Assembly (NCBI GenBank): GCA_045863395.1
Contig: BTVJ01000023.1
Location: 32,214 to 96,213, forward strand
Direction of reading: 5' to 3'
Origin: Myxococcales bacterium
GTDB taxonomy: Bacteria; Myxococcota_A; UBA9042; JABWCM01; BTVJ01
DNA length: 64,000 nucleotides
Shown here: piece by piece, positions 31,471 to 64,000 of the stretch
Layout of the letters: every line of letters begins with the position of its first letter
Position numbering within the stretch: position 1 is the stretch's first letter
Translations under genes and position numbers: made by a program
The notes under the pieces: model-generated
What the model saw: the letters and a program-made list of their open reading frames with translations, nothing else
Database searches by the model: none
What the model was told of the DNA's origin: nothing

Positions 31471-32217
31471 GTGAAGATACGACGAATGCCACTGATTTGC
31501 GGCGGCGCGGCCCTGTTCGCGCTCGCCGGGTGCGAGACCACGGGCGGCGGCGCCGCGGACGCCGCCCAGGCGGACGGCTCCGGCGGCGACAGCGGCGGCG
31601 CGGGCGGTGACTCGGGTGGGCCCGGCGCCGACGGCAGCGGCCAGGACGCAGCATCCGTGGACGCGAGCACACCGGACGGGGGCGGCTGGGACGCTTCGTC
31701 TGATGTGGGCTCCTGGGATGGCGCCTCCTGGGACGCGGGTTCTCCGGACTCGGTGGGCCCCTGGGACGCGGGCTCCCCGGACTCGGTGGGCCCCTGGGAT
31801 GGCGGGAGCCCCGACTCCGTGGGGCCCTGGGACGCGGGCAGCCCGGACGGTGGTGGGGGTGACGCGTGGGGCCTCGACGGGTGGACCCCGACGGACACGG
31901 GCCCCTGGGACGCGGGCTCCCCGGACACCAGCGACCCCAACGCCCCCAAGCTGGGCGACCCATGCGAGATGGGCTACACGGCCTGGTGCGACGCCAGCGC
32001 CACGCCCACGTTGTTCTGCGGCTGGACCGAGGCAGGCCAGGCGTGGATTCCCTATGAGAACGACGGCAGCCAGTATTGCTGGTGCGAGCCCGCCACCTCC
32101 CCCGGCATCACCTATTGCGCCGTCCCCGGCTTCGTCGGCCTCGACCGCGCCGGCCGCGCCCGCAAGGCGCGCACTCTCCGCTCGCTGCGCGCCAGCGCCC
32201 AGCGCCTCGCCGCCTGA
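31471..32217 (+). CDS. Lipoprotein with WDAGSPDSVGP tandem repeats
   Basis: GAGGAG RBS before GTG; lipobox LAGC; repeat linker; small Cys domain at C-terminus. Confidence 0.75.
   Translation: MKIRRMPLICGGAALFALAGCETTGGGAADAAQADGSGGDSGGAGGDSGGPGADGSGQDAASVDASTPDGGGWDASSDVGSWDGASWDAGSPDSVGPWDAGSPDSVGPWDGGSPDSVGPWDAGSPDGGGGDAWGLDGWTPTDTGPWDAGSPDTSDPNAPKLGDPCEMGYTAWCDASATPTLFCGWTEAGQAWIPYENDGSQYCWCEPATSPGITYCAVPGFVGLDRAGRARKARTLRSLRASAQRLAA
31729..31848 (+). repeat. 33-bp tandem repeat (about 3.6 units) encoding WD(A/G)GSPDSVGP
   Basis: Units start at 31729, 31762, 31795 and 31828; a further partial copy near 31903-31926. Confidence 0.9.
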
Positions 32218-55927: not shown

Positions 55928-55984
55928 CGAACCTGCGCCCCGCCCGCGGTGGGCGGGGCGCCCCACCCCCAAGAGGAGGAACCC

Positions 55985-56863
55985 ATGAAGACGAGTGGAC
56001 GTGACAGGATCCGGGAGCTGTGCATGCCCTCGCTGGGCTTCGCGCTGGCGGCGGTGATGCTACTGCCCAGCGCCGCCATTGCGGCTGGGGCGGATGAGGG
56101 CTGTCGTGCGGAGGGCTCGTGCGATGACCCTGGCGCGGTGGTCGTGGAGGAAGACGGGGCGTTGCCCGACGACGGCGGTGACGCAAGGGTGCCCGGCGGA
56201 GACGTCGAAGCGGCCATGAGTGACGAGGTCGTGCCCGAGCCGGAGCCCGAGGCGGCGACGACGCCCCGCTGCCCCCTCGGCGCCGAGGAGGTGACCATCG
56301 CCGAGTCCGACGCCTGCGTCGAGCGCGGCGACGGGTGGTGGGTGGTGCCGGGCCACGGTGGCGAGGCGCTCCTGGCCTACGCCGGCCCCCCCGACTCCGT
56401 GGTGACCTTCCGGCTCGTGGCGGAGGGGGAAGGCAAGCGCGCCTTCTGGCTGCACGTCCCCGACCGGGACCACCTGTCGCCAAAGGCGCCCGCCACGGTG
56501 ATCGTCGACGGACAGCGGCACGAGCGGTTCGTCGACCTTCTCGCGATGCGGGGCGGGTGGGCCTCCCTGGGCGCGTACCCGGTCCACGCAGGCGCCGACG
56601 TCCGCGTGGAGGTGCGCGACGACACGGGCGAGGCCTTCACGGGGGCCGCCGACAGCCCCGCCGTCACCATCGACGACCTGCGCGTCACGCTCCTGGAGCC
56701 GGTGTCCGTGTGCACGGGCTGCGAGCCGCCGGAGCTCCTCGGCTGGCCGGACCCCCCGACCCCCGACGCCGCGGCGCAGGGCTGTATGGCGGCGAGCCCT
56801 CAGTCTGGCGCGGTTGCTGCGGTCGCGCTGCTCCTCGCCTGGACCCGTCGCCGCCGGGCGTGA
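55985..56863 (+). CDS. Secreted protein with beta-sandwich domain and MYXO-CTERM-like sorting tail
   Basis: Signal peptide; C-terminus GCMAA..hydrophobic helix..RRRRA. Confidence 0.75.
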   Translation: MKTSGRDRIRELCMPSLGFALAAVMLLPSAAIAAGADEGCRAEGSCDDPGAVVVEEDGALPDDGGDARVPGGDVEAAMSDEVVPEPEPEAATTPRCPLGAEEVTIAESDACVERGDGWWVVPGHGGEALLAYAGPPDSVVTFRLVAEGEGKRAFWLHVPDRDHLSPKAPATVIVDGQRHERFVDLLAMRGGWASLGAYPVHAGADVRVEVRDDTGEAFTGAADSPAVTIDDLRVTLLEPVSVCTGCEPPELLGWPDPPTPDAAAQGCMAASPQSGAVAAVALLLAWTRRRRA

Positions 56864-56942
56864 CCCGTTGGGGGGGCACGACAGTTGACAGGACCGAGGC
56901 GTTTCGCTTCCAATCGACAGCCTGACGCGGCGGGAGGTCAGC

Positions 56943-58382
56943 ATGTGGAGCCCGGATCGGGTAGCGCGTATCGAGAGAGGCGGGGAGCTCGTGGCCGCGG
57001 GCTACGCCATTGGACCGCGGCACGTGCTGACAGCGCGGGCCGCGGTGCAGGGGCGGGAGGGTCTTCGCGTGACCGTGGGGGAGCTCCGAGGCGTGGCAGC
57101 GACGATGGTGTGGCCGAACAACGAGGCCTTCGCGCCGGCTCTGCTGCAAACGGAGGGAGACCTCAAAGTGCCCTTGGACCTCGTTGGGCTCACGGGGCCT
57201 TGGTACTCGGCCGAATTTGCAGAGGTCCACGAGTTGGCGCTGCCTGACCAACCCAAAGGCACGGTCGCAACCACGTCAGGGCCGATGCCCCATGCGGACC
57301 GTGACACCACCTCTGTCTACCTGGAGTGTTGGACGAAGGCAGGCGAATCACAGGCAAGCCTGGGAGCTCCTGTCGTCGTCCGGTCGTCCACCCGATCAGG
57401 GTGCGTCGTGGCCGTGGTCACAGGTTCCGCGCAGCATGGCGATAACGTCGTGGACATGGCGACGCTCACCCGCGCCTTCGCCTGCGATTCCACGTTCGTC
57501 GAGGCGGTTCTCGGAGAGACTGCGGCGAAGCGGCACCAGTCATTCCTCGCCGATCTCGAGGTGAAGGTGTCGAAGACGCTGGGCGCGTCCCGTCCGCTCC
57601 GCGATGCAATGCACCAGACACTTGAAGGGCGGACAGATGGGACGCCGGAGGCGCTCGCCCGCTGGCTCCTTCACAAGGTCAGCGGAGCAGAAACCATCCG
57701 GTGTCTCCACGACGCCTGGAGGGCGGCAGACGAGCCGGCGGTCCGTGGCTTCGCGAGAGACCTGGTCTGTCACCTCCTTCCCGCCAGTCTCGATTGGCGG
57801 AGCCGAGTCTATCAGGCGATGAGCGATCTGTCCGAGATCCCCAGAGCCACTAGAATTGAAGCGCACTCGGTGACGATCGCCGAGGCCATCATGGCAGGCG
57901 CCGAGGCGCGGCCGGTGCGGTTCGCCCCGGTCCAGCACGATGCGGATCTACCGGGGCTGTCGGCCATCATGGCCCCGCCGAACACGATGGTCACGAACTG
58001 GGAGGGTCTGGCGCCGGAGGCCGTAGCCCATGGGGTGCAGCAGATGGGGGCCGATGATCCCGTAACCCTGGTAGAGGAGAGACTGGGTAGGCGCTACGCG
58101 ACCCCGGAGGTGCGGCACAGGAAGCTGGAGGGAGAGCTGAACAGGCGCGCCGAGCGTGGATTGCCCGAGCGGCCGGCGTACTACCTGCTGGTGTCCGACA
58201 TCGCCGCTGATCCCGTTGCGCGCGCCGGCCGGTGGGAGGCATTCGAGCACCAGATGTCGCGGGTCCTCCCGAGCCTCCGTGTCGTGCTCCTCTGGGGCGG
58301 CGAGGGCGTGGACGGCGAGGAGACCATTGCCATTGACTTGAGCAGCATGTTCGCGAGCGGTGAGCAACGACCACGAGGTTGA
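56943..58382 (+). CDS. vWA-MoxR-associated adaptor protein with N-terminal inactive trypsin-like domain
   Basis: GYAIGPRHVLTARAAV / ALL / SLGAPVV trypsin-like pattern without the catalytic triad; immediately upstream of MoxR; GGAGG RBS. Confidence 0.7.
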   Translation: MWSPDRVARIERGGELVAAGYAIGPRHVLTARAAVQGREGLRVTVGELRGVAATMVWPNNEAFAPALLQTEGDLKVPLDLVGLTGPWYSAEFAEVHELALPDQPKGTVATTSGPMPHADRDTTSVYLECWTKAGESQASLGAPVVVRSSTRSGCVVAVVTGSAQHGDNVVDMATLTRAFACDSTFVEAVLGETAAKRHQSFLADLEVKVSKTLGASRPLRDAMHQTLEGRTDGTPEALARWLLHKVSGAETIRCLHDAWRAADEPAVRGFARDLVCHLLPASLDWRSRVYQAMSDLSEIPRATRIEAHSVTIAEAIMAGAEARPVRFAPVQHDADLPGLSAIMAPPNTMVTNWEGLAPEAVAHGVQQMGADDPVTLVEERLGRRYATPEVRHRKLEGELNRRAERGLPERPAYYLLVSDIAADPVARAGRWEAFEHQMSRVLPSLRVVLLWGGEGVDGEETIAIDLSSMFASGEQRPRG

Positions 58383-58385
58383 TAG

Positions 58386-59357
58386 ATGACCGACTTCCTC
58401 CCCGACGACCGCGACCTCGTCATCCCTCTGGAAGCCCGCGGTGGCCTCCCCAAGTCTGTCCACCTCCTCGAGCAGGAGCAGGCGCGGGCCGTCAACGCGG
58501 CCCTCGCCACGGGTCGGCCGCTGCTCGTGCGGGGCCTGCCGGGGACGGGCAAGAGTCAGTTTGCGCGCGCCGCCGCCGAGCAGCTCAGGCGGCCGTTCGT
58601 CGCGACGGTGGTGGACGGGCAGACGGAGACGCGGGACCTGCTCTGGACCGTGGACGCCGTGGCCAGGCTGGCACGCGCGCAGGCCATCGGCGCCATGCGT
58701 CCGCAGAGCCTCCACGAAGTGTCTGAAGAGATCGCACCCGAGAAGTTCGTCCAGCCTGGCGCCCTCTGGTGGGCGTTCGATTGGACGGACGCGGAGAATC
58801 AGGCTGAGCGCGGCGGTCCCGGCGCCTGCCTCAGGGTGGTAGACGGCTTCGACACGACGCGCGGGTGCGTCGTGCTGGTCGACGAGATCGACAAGGCGGA
58901 CGCGACCGTGCCCAACGGGCTCCTCGAGGCGCTCGGGAACGGGAGCTTCAACAAGCCCTTCGGAGGGACGGTGACGATGAACCGGGAGACCCCGCCGCTG
59001 GTCGTCGTCACGACCAATGAGGAGCGCGCCTTGCCGGACGCCTTCCTGCGGCGCTGCTTGGTGCTGCACCTGGAGCTGCCGAAGGGCCGGGGCGAGCGCG
59101 TGCGCTACCTGGCGCTCCGCGGGGAGCAACACTTCGAGGGGAAGTGGGGTCCGCTCGTGCAGGAGGCCGCCGAGCTCGTCGCGGACGATTACGCGGCGGC
59201 CCGGCGGGCGGGGAAGAGCCCCCCAGGCGTCGCGGAGTATATCGATCTCGTCCGGGCAGTGGGCTCGCAGCGCAAGGACGAGGTCGGTCAGCGCGACCTG
59301 CTCAAGTTGGTCAAGCAGTTCGCCCTCGAGAAGCACCCGCGCGAGGAGAGGCCGTGA
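58386..59357 (+). CDS. MoxR-type AAA+ ATPase (conflict-system clade)
   Basis: RPLLVRGLPGTGKS, DLLWTVDAVARL, VVLVDEIDKAD..PNGLL, TTNEERALPDAFLRRC. Confidence 0.93.
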   Translation: MTDFLPDDRDLVIPLEARGGLPKSVHLLEQEQARAVNAALATGRPLLVRGLPGTGKSQFARAAAEQLRRPFVATVVDGQTETRDLLWTVDAVARLARAQAIGAMRPQSLHEVSEEIAPEKFVQPGALWWAFDWTDAENQAERGGPGACLRVVDGFDTTRGCVVLVDEIDKADATVPNGLLEALGNGSFNKPFGGTVTMNRETPPLVVVTTNEERALPDAFLRRCLVLHLELPKGRGERVRYLALRGEQHFEGKWGPLVQEAAELVADDYAAARRAGKSPPGVAEYIDLVRAVGSQRKDEVGQRDLLKLVKQFALEKHPREERP

Positions 59358-62197
59358 CCGCGGCGGCGCCCTCGGCCCGGCAGCTCGGCGCCGTGGGGCG
59401 GGCGGACCTCGCACTGCTCCTCGCGCGGGCGAGTGGCGCAGAGGTGGCCGCACAGGCTGCTTTGCTGGGATATGTGCCCATCCCGGCACCTCCTCGTGCT
59501 CGCGAGCATGGCCGCGCTGCCCCAACGGAGCCCGCCATGCCCCTTGCGGAAGGGCCGGCCGTGGTGGCCGAGGCGTCGTTCCCGCCGGTCCCGCTGCTCC
59601 AGCTCGTCGTGTCAGAGCGCCACCCGGAGGTTGCGGTCGCCCCCACTCCTCTCGAAGAGGCGGCCCCGGCCCGGGAGATCGTGGAACCGGATTCCCGCCG
59701 TACCCTCATCGACGCGCTCCCGGGTCCTCCCCTCGCGCCATGGTCGCGTCTCGAGCCAGTGCTGCGGGCCCTGCTCACGTCGGACGGCGCGGGGCGGGGC
59801 GTGGACGTGCCCGCCGTCGTCCGAAGGCTGGCGCGCGTCGAGGAGCTCTCGCGCCTTCCGCGCCGGCGGGCACGGGGCTTCGTCGGGGCCGTGGAGCTGT
59901 GGGACGACCGCTCGCACCGCGTGGCGCCCTTCCGGCACGACGCCGACCGGGTCCGTGACCGCCTCGAGAAGGTCCTGGGCCGCCACGCCGTGCGTCGGCG
60001 CCTTCTGCCGGAGCGGGACCAGCGCCTCGCGGCCTGGGACCATGGCTCCGTCCTCCCGCCCAACCAGATGCCGGTGGCGGGAACGACCGTGCTCGCGCTG
60101 AGCGACCTGGGCCAGTACGGCGACGGTGCCATGCGGCAGGCTTGGCGCCTGACGGCCGGGGCGCTGCGCAGGCGGGGGGTGCGCGTCTGTGCGCTCACGC
60201 CTGTGCCCCCGCATCGGTGGGACGTGGAGGTCGCCGCGGCGTGGCGCGCGGAGGGTTGGGAGCGCCGCCCGGTCGCTGACGCGCCGGATGCCAGGGTGGA
60301 CGCCCGGGCCGAGCGGCTCCTGGCCCTGTGCGCCGCGAGCGCGTGGACGACCCTGGGCATGCTCCGCGAGCTGCGTCTCGCGCTGCCCGCCGCCGAGGCG
60401 GACGCAGGGACGGAGGCCGACGCCTGGAACCACGCGGACGCTCTGACGGGCTGCGCGGTGGCCCTCGTGGTGGCCGCGCCGGCTCGCGACGCGCTGCGCC
60501 GGCGCTTCGCCGATGAGCCGGCAGCGCTGCGGGACCGGGTCGCCCGCATCGTGGAGGAGCGTCACGCGCGCCTGCACCTGCCGGAGCTGCTGCACGGCGA
60601 GACCCTCGTCTGGCTGCACGGCGGCCTGTGCGGCCAGTCCGGCGACGGCAGCGAGGTGCAGCCGCCCGGCGACGTGGAGCAGGCGCGCGCCCTGGTCCAG
60701 CGCTTCGCCCAGATCGCCCGGACCGGGCGGCTCGATGCCGACGCGGTGGCGCAGGTGGCGTGGTACGCAGCAGAGCTCGTCCCCCAGCTCCCCCCCGAAG
60801 CCCTCGCCGACCCGCACATCGGGCGCCCCCTGTCCGTGCTGGCTGCGCTGGCCACACGGGTGAGCCAGCGCCGGCTCCCAGCGGGCCCGGACCCGGCGAC
60901 CGCGCTCCGTGAACTCGGCGGACCGGAGCCGCCGCCGCCCCGCTGGTGGACCCTCCGCCATGTGGGTGACGCGGTCGTGGCACGACCCGGGCCGGGCCCC
61001 TGGGACGTGCGCTCGCCCCTCGGCGGCTCGCCCCTCGGCGGCATCCAGGCGAGGCTACCGCAGCTCGCCGTCCGCGTGGGCGACGGCCCGGTGATGCTCG
61101 TCGCCCTCGACGGCCCGGACCCGGCCATCCGCCTGCCGAGCGCCGTCCGCGTCGAGCTGGTGTCGGACGTGGAGCGGGTCGTCCTCGACGCACTGGAGTG
61201 CCCGGAGTGGGCCGTCGCGGCGGGCCGGGACCGCTACGGCCTGTGGGCGGACGCAGAGATCCGGGGTGTGGTGCAGCGGTTCCGGTGGGTGCCGCCTGGG
61301 ACGTTCCTGATGGGGTCGCCGGAGAGCGAGGAGGGCCGGGGGGAGAACGAGGGCCCGCAGCACGAGGTGACGTTGACGCGCGGGTACTGGTTGGGGGACA
61401 CGCCGGTGACCCAGGCGCTGTGGGAGGCGGTGCGAGGCAGGCAAGCAAACGGGAGTCGCTTTCAGTCCCCGAGTCGGCCTGTTGTGAAAGTTTCTTGGTA
61501 CAAATGCTATGCCTTCTTGAGAGAGTGCGCACGGTTGGCGCCTCAGCTCGCGGCGCGCCTGCCAACTGAGTTCGAATGGGAGTACGCGTGCCGCGCTGGC
61601 GCATCGACAGCCACGTGGCTCGGCGATCTCGACATTCGGGGCGAACACGATGCCCCGCTCCTCGACCGGATCGCTTGGTACGGCGGCAACTGCGGTCGGG
61701 ACTTCATGCTGGCCGATGGGTACGACATCCGCCCCAAGCGCGAGCGACAGTACAACGACGCATTTGGTGGTACGCACGATGTGGCTGGCAAGGCGCCAAA
61801 TCCGCTCGGGCTGTTCGACATGCTCGGAAACGTCTGGGAGTGGTGTTCGGGCTGGCTAACCCAGTACAACGCCACGGCATCCACGGACCCCACCGACACC
61901 ACCACTGGGACAGGGAAGGTTCTACGTGGAGGGGCTTGGCTCGATGCGGCCAGGAACGTTCGGGCGGCGAGCCGGGGCTGGAGCGACCCAGGTTACGGGA
62001 GCAAGGACACAGGTTTCCGCCTGGCCCGAGGTCACGTCCCGGCGGGGCAGGGGCCGGCGGCGCGGACGATGCCCCCCGCGGAGGGCGAGCGGAGCGTTCC
62101 GGGGGCGGGGGGCGGCGTTCGCGCTCCCGGCGGTGGAGGCACAGCGGCGCCTCGGACGAAGCGCCGCCCGGCGACTGATCCGAGGCGAGGGCACTGA
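59354..62197 (+). CDS. vWA-like domain protein fused to C-terminal FGE-sulfatase (CLec-fold) domain
   Basis: GTGA overlap with MoxR; GRADL, DDRSHRVAPF, LALSDLG; FLMGSP, PVTQALW, RLPTEFEWEYACRAG, GNVWEW, RGGAW..GFRLA. Confidence 0.88.
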   Translation: MTAAAPSARQLGAVGRADLALLLARASGAEVAAQAALLGYVPIPAPPRAREHGRAAPTEPAMPLAEGPAVVAEASFPPVPLLQLVVSERHPEVAVAPTPLEEAAPAREIVEPDSRRTLIDALPGPPLAPWSRLEPVLRALLTSDGAGRGVDVPAVVRRLARVEELSRLPRRRARGFVGAVELWDDRSHRVAPFRHDADRVRDRLEKVLGRHAVRRRLLPERDQRLAAWDHGSVLPPNQMPVAGTTVLALSDLGQYGDGAMRQAWRLTAGALRRRGVRVCALTPVPPHRWDVEVAAAWRAEGWERRPVADAPDARVDARAERLLALCAASAWTTLGMLRELRLALPAAEADAGTEADAWNHADALTGCAVALVVAAPARDALRRRFADEPAALRDRVARIVEERHARLHLPELLHGETLVWLHGGLCGQSGDGSEVQPPGDVEQARALVQRFAQIARTGRLDADAVAQVAWYAAELVPQLPPEALADPHIGRPLSVLAALATRVSQRRLPAGPDPATALRELGGPEPPPPRWWTLRHVGDAVVARPGPGPWDVRSPLGGSPLGGIQARLPQLAVRVGDGPVMLVALDGPDPAIRLPSAVRVELVSDVERVVLDALECPEWAVAAGRDRYGLWADAEIRGVVQRFRWVPPGTFLMGSPESEEGRGENEGPQHEVTLTRGYWLGDTPVTQALWEAVRGRQANGSRFQSPSRPVVKVSWYKCYAFLRECARLAPQLAARLPTEFEWEYACRAGASTATWLGDLDIRGEHDAPLLDRIAWYGGNCGRDFMLADGYDIRPKRERQYNDAFGGTHDVAGKAPNPLGLFDMLGNVWEWCSGWLTQYNATASTDPTDTTTGTGKVLRGGAWLDAARNVRAASRGWSDPGYGSKDTGFRLARGHVPAGQGPAARTMPPAEGERSVPGAGGGVRAPGGGGTAAPRTKRRPATDPRRGH
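62060..62124. repeat. Imperfect inverted repeat (hairpin A) downstream of the first CLec variable-like region
   Basis: GCGCGGACGATGCCCCCCGC ... GCGGGGGGCGGCGTTCGCGC. Confidence 0.7.
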
Positions 62198-63042
62198 TGG
62201 CACGGATGATCGACACAGTGCCTGGGCCGCCCGCTCTGCCTGCCGGCCCGCTTCTGCCCCCAGGCCGCCACCCGCTGGCCCCTGGGCTCCCCGAGCCTTG
62301 GGCCGCGGAGTGGGGGCAGGACCGCTACGGTGTCTTCACGGCCTTCGCGGTCGGCGACGTGGTTCAGCGCTTGCGGTGGGTTCCCCCCGGCACGTTCCTG
62401 ATGGGCTCGCCCGAGGGCGAGGAGGGGCGGCGGGACCTCGAAGGACCTCGGAGCCCCGTCACGCTCACGCGCGGCCTGTGGATGGGCGAGACCCCGGTGA
62501 CGCAGGCCCTGTGGAGGGGGGTCATGGACCACAATCCGAGCAGGTTTGAAGAGGACGGAAGGCAGCGACCTGTCGAGTGCGTGAGCTGGGACGACTGCCA
62601 GCACTTCCTAGAGCGGCTCCACCGGGTCGTGCCCGGCCTGCAGCCCCGCCTGCCGACGGAAGCCGAGTGGGAGCGCGCCTGCCGGGCGGGAACGGATGGC
62701 GCGCGCTACGGGAGGCTCGACGAAATCGCGTGGCACGACGGGAACTCCGGCAATGGGACCCGCTCGGTGAAACAGCGGCTTCCGAACGCCCTCGGGCTGT
62801 ACGACATCCTCGGCAACGTGTGGGAGTGGTGCTCGGACTGCCTCGGTCCGTACCCACCAGGCCCTCGGGTCGACCCGGCCAGCGTCTCTCCGGGCTCGAG
62901 GCGGGTCATCCGGGGCGGCTCCTGGAGCAACCCGGCCGGGAACGTCCGGGCGGCCTACCGGAGCGGGTACCCGCCCGGGTTCCGGTTCGAGTTCCTGGGC
63001 TTCCGGCTCGCCCGAGGTCACGACCAGCAGGCCAGCCAGTAG
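62197..63042 (+). CDS. Stand-alone FGE-sulfatase (SUMF1/CLec-fold) domain protein
   Basis: TGATG overlap; GQDRYG, FLMGSP, RLPTEAEWERACRAG, GNVWEW, RGGSW...GFRLA; lacks FGE catalytic cysteines in the C-terminal segment. Confidence 0.92.
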   Translation: MARMIDTVPGPPALPAGPLLPPGRHPLAPGLPEPWAAEWGQDRYGVFTAFAVGDVVQRLRWVPPGTFLMGSPEGEEGRRDLEGPRSPVTLTRGLWMGETPVTQALWRGVMDHNPSRFEEDGRQRPVECVSWDDCQHFLERLHRVVPGLQPRLPTEAEWERACRAGTDGARYGRLDEIAWHDGNSGNGTRSVKQRLPNALGLYDILGNVWEWCSDCLGPYPPGPRVDPASVSPGSRRVIRGGSWSNPAGNVRAAYRSGYPPGFRFEFLGFRLARGHDQQASQ

Positions 63043-63045
63043 GCG

Positions 63046-63110
63046 GCGCAGACGACGGCCCCAGCGGAGGGCCAGCGGAGCGGCCCGGAGCCTGGGGCCG
63101 TCGTTCGCGC
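63046..63110. repeat. Inverted repeat (hairpin B) downstream of the second CLec gene, homologous to hairpin A
   Basis: Perfect 13-bp core ACGACGGCCCCAG (63052-63064) / CTGGGGCCGTCGT (63092-63104); a second 8-bp stem CGGTCGAG/CTCGACCG at 63117-63145. Confidence 0.8.
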
Positions 63111-63283
63111 CGCCCCCGGTCGAGTCTGCTCGGGCGCCTCGACCGCCCGTTTCCAGGCATCCGCCCGTACGCGACCCCCGAGAAGACTCCCCCCGCTGAA
63201 TCCCCGTGGTTGTCCGTGACGGCTGTTGAACCAATGAGCGCTCTCCCGAACCGCACCAGCGGACCGGACCATCACCCAACGCG

Positions 63284-64000
63284 CTACTTCGCCATCCGCC
63301 TGTACCGAGCAACCTTGGCGATGCCCTGCATCCTCAGCTCGTCCCCGAGACCCTGCGCCGTAAGGCCGAGCTTGCGGGCTGCCGCGGTGACGTCTCCTCC
63401 ACACTCCGTCCACGCCGCTCGCAGCGCCTCAGCACTGACCGTGTCCCCGGCCTCTCGCAGAATCTCGCGACGCTGGAGCTCCCTGCGGAGCTGCCCCACG
63501 CTGACGACGATTCCATGCTTCATCTGCAGGCGGTCCACGGTCGCGGCCAGCGAGCGGCCCGGGTCGCGCTCCTCCCATCTCTCCTCGAACAGAGACTCGA
63601 TCTCTGCGCGGTCCAGGTCAACGAGCCCCTTCGATGGCCGCTCGGGTCCTCCGCACGACACCCCCTCGTCTCGGCCCGGCGACGGGGTCTCGCAGAAGGC
63701 CTCCGGCGCGGGCATGGCCCGCGTCCCTCCGAACTCCACCTGCGCGTCCGGGTTCCTCTCGAGAGCGTGGCGATTGAAGGTCCAGAGCCACTCGGCGGCC
63801 GCCCGGAGCTGCCGCACGTTGAGTGGCCAGTCGTAGCGCAGGAGCCGGCACAACAGCTCCGGGGGAACCAGAGGGCTCTCGCGGGAGGTGAGGCGGCCCA
63901 CGTCATACCCCGAGGAGGATGCCGCCTGCCGCAGGAAGTGCCAGAATGTTGACGCGCATCGGAAACCGCGCAAATCACAGCACGCCGGAGGGGGACTGGC
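63284..64000 (-). CDS. C-terminal part of a sigma54-dependent activator-like (bEBP/Fis-HTH) protein, truncated by the window edge
   Basis: HFL, LLRYDWPLNVRQL (sensor II-like), GGDVTAAARKLGL Fis-type HTH; frame open to window end. Confidence 0.75.
   Translation of the reverse strand, partial: ASPPPACCDLRGFRCASTFWHFLRQAASSSGYDVGRLTSRESPLVPPELLCRLLRYDWPLNVRQLRAAAEWLWTFNRHALERNPDAQVEFGGTRAMPAPEAFCETPSPGRDEGVSCGGPERPSKGLVDLDRAEIESLFEERWEERDPGRSLAATVDRLQMKHGIVVSVGQLRRELQRREILREAGDTVSAEALRAAWTECGGDVTAAARKLGLTAQGLGDELRMQGIAKVARYRRMAK

Follow-up and report, generated by a model that had tools for sequence, protein, structure and literature searches.

The operon and its features

The stretch analysed here (the window) comprised 64,000 nucleotides of a Myxococcales bacterium, namely positions 32,214 to 96,213 of contig BTVJ01000023.1 in assembly GCA_045863395.1. 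It contained an operon of four genes, g1 to g4, encoding a third component or adaptor, a MoxR ATPase, a vWA protein that ended in a CLec domain and a second, CLec-only protein. The window formed the end of contig C23 in a genome of 8.8 Mb (186 contigs, 97.4% complete), and the metagenome runs that contained it came from sludge and bioreactors. The organism shared its GTDB phylum with the Polyangiaceae, in agreement with the myxobacterium-like source supposed in an earlier sequence-only reading. Below, C, L, G and X with a number denote contigs, loci of relatives, genomes (G000 for that of the window) and metagenome runs.

All four open reading frames were intact, and the close gene couplings were as that reading had described in calling the genes one tightly coupled operon; the system was also conserved in relatives. 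Its possible promoter, TTGACA-N18-TCCAAT, was not called by a sigma-70 consensus scan. The features are listed below (DGR, diversity-generating retroelement; VR, variable region).

56885..56914, + strand: possible promoter, perfect -35 and poor -10, unproven
56943..58382, + strand: g1, third component (adaptor), pseudo-trypsin with TERNS3-N-like helical and TERNS3-like alpha/beta parts
56943..57512, + strand: trypsin-fold domain with the triad lost, the His33, Asp64 and Ser140 positions being Ala, Ala and Leu
57516..58355, + strand: putative divergent TERNS3-N (helical, about amino acids 192-296) and TERNS3 (alpha/beta, about amino acids 300-471), from secondary structure, profile homology and sister-clade identity
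58386..59357, + strand: g2, MoxR AAA+ ATPase with intact motifs, of a clade common to TERNS3 systems
59354..62197, + strand: g3, vWA, vWA-L, beta-domain, CLec (putative former DGR target 1) and a read-through tail over the hairpin
59885..60271, + strand: vWA domain of g3, amino acids 178-306, MIDAS aspartates D185 and D251 kept
60275..60673, + strand: vWA-L linker of g3, amino acids 308-440, modelled as a winged helix with a helical arm
61424..62029, + strand: 3' two-thirds of the g3 CLec with foreign codon composition, likely a recombination swap
61925..62020, + strand: VR-like segment of g3, out of register with g4
62056..62128, + strand: post-VR hairpin of g3 with a short GC-GGA-GC motif, homologous to that of g4 (fold z -1.9)
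62197..63042, + strand: g4, CLec-only, putative former DGR target 2
62911..63006, + strand: VR of g4 with a DGR mutation signature, adenine-site differences against the C97 paralogue
63042..63114, + strand: post-VR DNA hairpin of g4, of the DGR cis-element type, with a near-identical counterpart in the C97 paralogue

Placement among ternary systems

The operon had been read as a MoxR/vWA ternary conflict-type system rather than a metabolic chaperone, and a quick maximum-likelihood tree of 67 MoxRs (RavA not among them) agreed. In this tree g2 grouped with 42 others in a 43-row clade (support 99), apart from four iSTAND, five VMAP and the CoxD-like MoxRs. The clade was split into CLec-type rows (28, support 98) and rows in which the vWA gene was short (15, support 84). 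Two members of the latter branch, L036 (WP_133291404.1) and L045 (WP_132123911.1), were given as TIR+TERNS3-N+TERNS3 in supplement 1 of Kaur et al. 2021 (PMC8195603). The order of TERNS3 systems, MoxR with the vWA gene immediately downstream, was present here. Moreover, a hidden Markov model (HMM) of vWA-L from g3 matched all 15 sister loci, L045 and L036 included, and at 13 of the 15 the match lay on the strand downstream of vWA. In the window and the CLec subclade vWA-L was fused to vWA, unlike the usual separate TERNS3 gene; the list in Kaur et al. 2021 (PMC8195603) holds four such fused cases. Because of this fusion, the operon would represent a variant subfamily and not a plain TERNS3 member. 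It is a predicted new CLec/DGR-linked variant of the MoxR-vWA ternary systems with TERNS3.

The VMAP-type MoxR N-terminal motifs WxhapG and PsWRxa were absent from the MoxR alignment (A7). The window MoxR was 62-63% identical to that of the closest relative, L007, with 94 of 197 synonymous sites different. This MoxR clade was present in 11 of 401 sampled genomes of the phylum, and viral contigs had distant MoxRs only (24-29%). The cultured Sorangium sp. So ce1151 had an intact relative of the MoxR.

The third component

The AF2 model of g1 had a pLDDT of 86.8 and a pTM of 0.88, and the family comprised 866 clusters at 50% identity. The assignment of the adaptor as a pseudo-trypsin held. Triad residues were lost in 6 of 55 full-length trypsin-type homologues, and the window protein was the sole one without all three. 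From this loss, the trypsin domain is predicted to be proteolytically disarmed. It retained a high pLDDT in the model, yet scored just 34 bits against its family profile. The low GC content at third codon positions (GC3) of g1 was rejected as a sign of decay, since that of L007 g1 was likewise low.

The C-terminal part of g1 appears to be a divergent form of the TERNS3-N+TERNS3 module published in Kaur et al. 2021 (PMC8195603). Its profile matched a 13-protein sister alignment with an hhalign probability of 90.1 (E=1.6e-6, 199 columns), and none of 20 block-shuffled controls exceeded 0.3. The homology would be distant because single-sequence HMM scores across the clade split were weak. The sequence-only reading was right that this part was neither VMAP-C nor iSTAND: PF20028 had no Pfam match and PF19995 no sequence-profile match in g1 or 96 homologues, and hhalign probabilities were at most 0.2 against six VMAP-C and at most 0.4 against four iSTAND sequences. 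Its suggestion of a wholly new variant gave way to that of a divergent TERNS3 relative. The strand-helix order was compatible with an inactive STAND/P-loop fold; the Atlas gave leads only (iSTAND cluster 0.76, FtsK TM 0.38), and the fold searches were dominated by the trypsin domain.

The N-terminal effectors of the 96 homologues scanned were swapped among trypsin (the commonest), TIR, caspase, phosphoesterase, PNP and SIR2. Searches of the phmmer type with g1 and the g3 N-terminus gave almost no matches, PDB sequence searches were blank, and PADLOC had no system match for g1, g3 or g4.

The vWA protein and its CLec domain

The aspartates D185 and D251 of the g3 vWA domain were invariant in the alignment, and its top VIA matches were CMG2, TEM8, the CD11b I domain and the NorD vWA. 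The model of vWA-L, a winged helix with a helical arm, was like the STAND proteins MalT and PH0952. Foldseek with the g3 model gave no match at E 0.001, and the complex prediction of g3 amino acids 125-525 with g1 amino acids 196-479 was uninformative (score 0.01).

It was likely that the g3 CLec had been swapped in by recombination from another, lower-GC donor, since the synonymous sites were AT-rich from codon 691: A or T occupied 29 of 103 synonymous third positions from there on, compared with 21 of 243 upstream (p=8e-6), and GC3 was 0.72 in the CLec region versus 0.96. The VRs of g3 and g4 had 13 third-position differences. A vWA-fused target out of register with the template pattern, next to a CLec-only target that still fitted it, was seen at L015, L040, L263 and in the window; L008 tended to the opposite.

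A retroelement signature in g4

A 5'-truncated paralogue of g4, 85% identical, was located at the start of contig C97 (G000:C97:1-711). It had no stop codon, its reading frame running through the hairpin, and it adjoined a sequence end common to the starts of C17 and C78. Within the VR, 17 of the 18 differences between g4 and C97 were at codon positions 1-2, compared with 34 of 74 at position 3 upstream (p=0.001). In the 96-base VR core, 16 of 17 differences fell on template-adenine sites (p=2e-11), namely the 24 sites with A in at least three of six relatives' templates. Downstream of the VR, the two copies had a single difference in 99 bases.

A hairpin after the VR is a cis element in DGR targets. 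That of g4 (73 bases, common to C97) folded at -36.1 kcal/mol (z -6.2, 0 of 200 shuffles). Since the VR differences sat at template adenines and the hairpin was common to C97, the signature marks g4 as a target that a DGR diversified until recently. The possibility that C97 was an allele of g4 was rejected, as C97, g4 and the upstream contig were all at a depth of about 20 in X1.

The missing cassette

In L007 an HRDC gene, a reverse transcriptase (RT) and a template (TR) lay between the two CLec genes, and the VRs differed from the template at adenines only (11 of 11 and 13 of 13). In the window g4 came directly after g3, with no cassette between. The two CLec genes noted in the sequence-only reading were thus present, but it had missed that both were apparently former DGR targets whose RT/template cassette was gone.

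Ungapped adenine-tolerant scans of the genome found no template for g3, g4 or C97; as a positive control, the VR of the DGR on C33 recovered its own template with 0 non-A mismatches. A pattern search of the genome also found no template. The template-flank profile, which detected three held-out sites at E<0.001 and missed others, had no match in the genome. Nor did the genome contain a cognate RT, the best of its four RTs scoring 175 bits versus 340-377 for held-out cognate RTs, and no cognate HRDC was found in it. The intact DGR on C33 was rejected as a trans source for g4 (30 non-A mismatches), as was the RT stub on C68 as the cognate RT (just 145 bits). The g3-g4 junction held no template-flank remnant, with scores at shuffle level where true flanks reached 73-209 against each other. 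Because of this, and since the g3 hairpin was still present, deletion of the cassette through VR-template recombination was unlikely.

Contigs of four metagenome runs were compared at 80% likeness; the RNA-labelled run X8 was available as contigs only. The following statements hold among the matches listed. In X1 the changes to A (9+3+4) were all accounted for by the C97 paralogue as a possible source, and the whole run had no template-like contig. The g4 VR was unchanged in X2 and X8, contigs of two other studies, and the g3 VR in one of them, X2. The C97 alleles in X6 and X8 were the same ones. A degenerate VR pattern had no match in the JGI metagenomes. It was likely, as far as the assembled sequence goes, that the cassette was lost in this genome and the g4 sensor frozen.

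The survey of relatives covered 33 informative loci, with truncated, single-target and CLec-less loci excluded and duplicates merged. A full HRDC-RT-TR cassette with adenine-specific differences was located between the targets at 10 of these, and 20 had no cassette there; of the rest, two had a cassette start at a contig end and one an HRDC stub and a template without RT. Decay intermediates were L040 and L028, the latter with a frameshifted RT. Among these unrooted loci, the pattern suggests that the cassette was lost rather than gained. The genome G268 (98% complete, about 10 contigs) had three cassette-less loci, with one pattern still shared by three of their six VRs, and contained no cognate RT or HRDC. 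In adjacent VR pairs the median number of third-position differences was 0 where a template matched (10 pairs) and 10 where none did (16 pairs, that of the window among them), p=2e-4; this p is overstated as the loci are kin, and pattern-missed pairs and L040 were left out. At cassette-less loci the VRs had up to 16-22 synonymous differences.

Some cassette-less loci had templates elsewhere. That of L015 was about 11 kb away. In G188, L274 fitted a template on a different contig, that of L264, with 11 of 13 and 12 of 12 differences falling on A. A single DGR template of G188 apparently serves a pair of distinct ternary operons in trans. Cassette-less L021 (12907-18088, five genes), L268 and L270 had their CLec genes in tandem arrays of three to five, which suggests duplication in place of hypermutation. 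The template 3' flanks of L007, L028, L264, L265, L269 and L271 had about 150 conserved bases, a candidate structured RNA of HRDC-type DGRs. A literature search, with subscription journals outside its scope, gave no match on DGR loss or on DGRs in Myxococcota.

Other features of the genome

The intact DGR at G000:C33:45128-52680 (L003, L005) encoded a large secreted FGE target, HRDC, Avd and RT with a template matching the VR, and had an opposite-strand gene between RT and template. Three CLec genes at contig ends (C18:162-833, C32:105-767 and C162:5616-6390) had one VR pattern and one hairpin in common among themselves, and no template was found for them. C68:1-938 started with that same hairpin and with the N-terminus of an RT joined in frame to the C-terminus of an Avd, likely a deleted DGR. 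In G000:C47:10300-10960 a template-like repeat, truncated and lacking an RT in its vicinity, came about 220 bases after an FGE target, a further DGR relic.

In the window, positions 63284-64000 (- strand) held a sigma-54 activator remnant (AAA lid and Fis helix-turn-helix) interrupted by a 55-base element end, which was present at the ends of at least seven contigs and was probably an insertion sequence. Upstream, positions 55949-56863 (+ strand) encoded a secreted protein that had a weak Golvesin_C domain and ended in a sorting-type tail; no link to the system was found.

Proposed function and alternatives

In armed relatives, a foreign ligand, for example a phage or non-kin protein, would be bound by CLec domains that the DGR has randomised, of which one is tethered to vWA and the other free. 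A MoxR hexamer would grip the vWA partner and remodel the vWA-L arm using ATP. This change would be relayed to the TERNS3 adaptor and activate its swappable N-terminal effector, leading to cell death or dormancy. In the model of Kaur et al. 2020 (PMC7159879), sensing falls to the third component, whose protease releases vWA-linked effectors; in that of Dore et al. 2024 (PMC10907252), it falls to the CLec, and MoxR passes the signal on to a third-component effector. Since the toxic domains of the adaptor are swappable and the CLec is hypervariable, a Dore-type model would be favoured for the CLec/DGR-linked family. The proteolytic step is predicted to be off here under either model.

In this genome the RT and template would have been lost, the g4 sensor frozen and a new CLec acquired by g3 through recombination, and the trypsin would have become a folded pseudo-enzyme serving as a scaffold or decoy. 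As the protease is predicted to be dead, the proposed proteolytic output is removed, and any effect would be binding or sequestration. Thus, we hold with moderate confidence that this CLec-tipped TERNS3 variant, with a dead protease and no cassette found, likely persists as a binding module of fixed specificity and neither cuts nor mutates. Retention in such a role was favoured over neutral decay because the dead domain had diverged far without a frame break.

Several points weighed against this reading. The TERNS3 match was moderate (90%), and the deep HMM of the g1 C-terminus matched single sister proteins weakly (best E 4e-4, several >1). Conserved CLec residues were lost at 6 of 75 positions in g3 versus one in g4, which was compatible with decay too. 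The rest of the genome yielded no active trypsin of the family type, and so no output was identified. Contigs hide rare variants, and the cassette may be unassembled, given the 186 contigs and the contig break at which the C97 paralogue begins. Additionally, the match of L274 to a remote template means that local absence of a cassette is no proof of freezing.

Neutral decay of a relic, in which the locus does nothing without DGR and protease and the reading frames are merely unbroken so far, was fairly unlikely. The lost triad, the six changed CLec residues of g3 and the lack of a cognate effector elsewhere in the genome would fit it, as would the truncation of the C97 paralogue beside a repeated element end and the other broken DGRs of the genome. 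However, the trypsin protein was only 22-28% identical over its whole length to active relatives and still modelled well, with no frameshift or stop, and the MoxR remained conserved relative to L007 despite its synonymous divergence. Moreover, pseudo-trypsins recurred in the family, and cassette-less loci had lasted long enough to accumulate the synonymous VR differences given above.

A bolder extension, which we consider tentative and rather improbable, combines split STAND/NLR receptors with adaptive and memory cycling. TERNS3 would be a degenerate nucleotide-binding domain in an effector-carrying adaptor, vWA-L would be the winged helix and arm standing before the sensor, and the MoxR-vWA motor would replace the built-in ATP switch. 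The adaptive state would have the DGR in place; in the memory state the cassette would be dropped, and selected sensors would become fixed, multiply into arrays or be exchanged through recombination, with the lethal protease switched off here.

It was distinctly unlikely that g4 was still being diversified in trans, as the remote target of an RT/template cassette missing from the assembly. The recent common template of g4 and C97 (one VR third-position difference, one in 99 bases downstream), the intact g4 hairpin, the G188 case and the trans activity described in Dore et al. 2024 (PMC10907252) spoke for it. Against it, the genome lacked a cognate RT, HRDC, template or template flank, X1 had no template-like contig and other studies the same VR alleles among the matches listed, and the g3 VR did not match the g4 pattern. 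Finally, a metabolic MoxR/vWA chaperone pair of the CoxD/CoxE or NorQ/NorD type beside unrelated FGE genes was highly improbable, as g2 lay among ternary-system clades with supports of 96 and 99, away from the CoxD-like MoxR that this genome has on C56, and the neighbours in relatives were TIR, caspase, trypsin, SIR2, EAD1/EAD5 fusions and DGR cassettes.

The operon links two published pictures that had stood apart, in that the domains left unassigned at MoxR-linked DGR loci are apparently TERNS3 and vWA/vWA-L. In addition, vWA-L gains a candidate fold common to NLR-like STAND receptors. Most sampled loci lacked the hypermutator of what has been proposed as an adaptive-immune system of bacteria, while the sensors persisted; therefore, the DGR-selected outcome can be studied afterwards. 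A frozen sensor would be a fixed reagent for a ligand search. The window locus itself would be one disarmed example with a putative conflict-system role.

Comparison with known systems

The closest systems were those with TERNS3 (Kaur et al. 2021, PMC8195603), which as described there have the same order of third component, MoxR and vWA, a sister MoxR clade, apparently homologous TERNS3-N+TERNS3 and vWA-L, and N-terminal TIR or protease fusions. Their list includes one trypsin+TERNS3 protein (Sorangium), with no counterpart found among the homologues collected here, and several vWA-L+TIR+FGS effectors. In contrast, the window fuses vWA, vWA-L, beta-domain and CLec in one protein followed by a CLec-only gene; among the homologues scanned trypsin is the commonest N-terminal domain, and many relatives have an HRDC-RT-TR DGR inside the operon, while its own protease is predicted to be dead. 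The TERNS3 entries of supplement 1, parts 3-5 (PMC8195603), contained no DGR or vWA+vWA-L+FGS architecture.

The Thiohalocapsa clade 5A/DGR8 and DGR9 loci (Dore et al. 2024, PMC10907252) were similar, by architecture only, in that MoxR immediately precedes a long CLec target extended at its N-terminus, a short CLec-only target is present, and the upstream trypsin/TIR gene has no detectable VMAP-C; that paper assigned neither the extension nor the upstream domain. As reported there, they have RT and template and are diversifying, whereas the window has neither. The term TERNS3 was absent from the PNAS supplements of that paper, and no mention of it was found in the other relevant literature searched.

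The ternary systems described in Kaur et al. 2020 (PMC7159879) shared the three-part grammar, the pool of N-terminal effectors and effector-associated domains (EADs) and, in some, FGS/CLec with DGRs. The window differed from them in having no VMAP-C/iSTAND profile match, a separate MoxR clade and a protease predicted to be inactive, where their peptidases were described as active. The listed iSTAND2 examples are EAD fusions of 290-420 amino acids. The cassettes of the relatives were, like Architecture C of the HRDC-type DGRs in Wu et al. 2018 (PMC5758913), of the form HRDC-RT-TR with a VR followed by a hairpin. Compared with these DGRs, the window retains targets and hairpins only. In STAND proteins the winged helix and arm stand ahead of the sensor, and in the model vWA-L resembles this part of the STAND NTPases MalT and PH0952, with a sensor domain likewise following.
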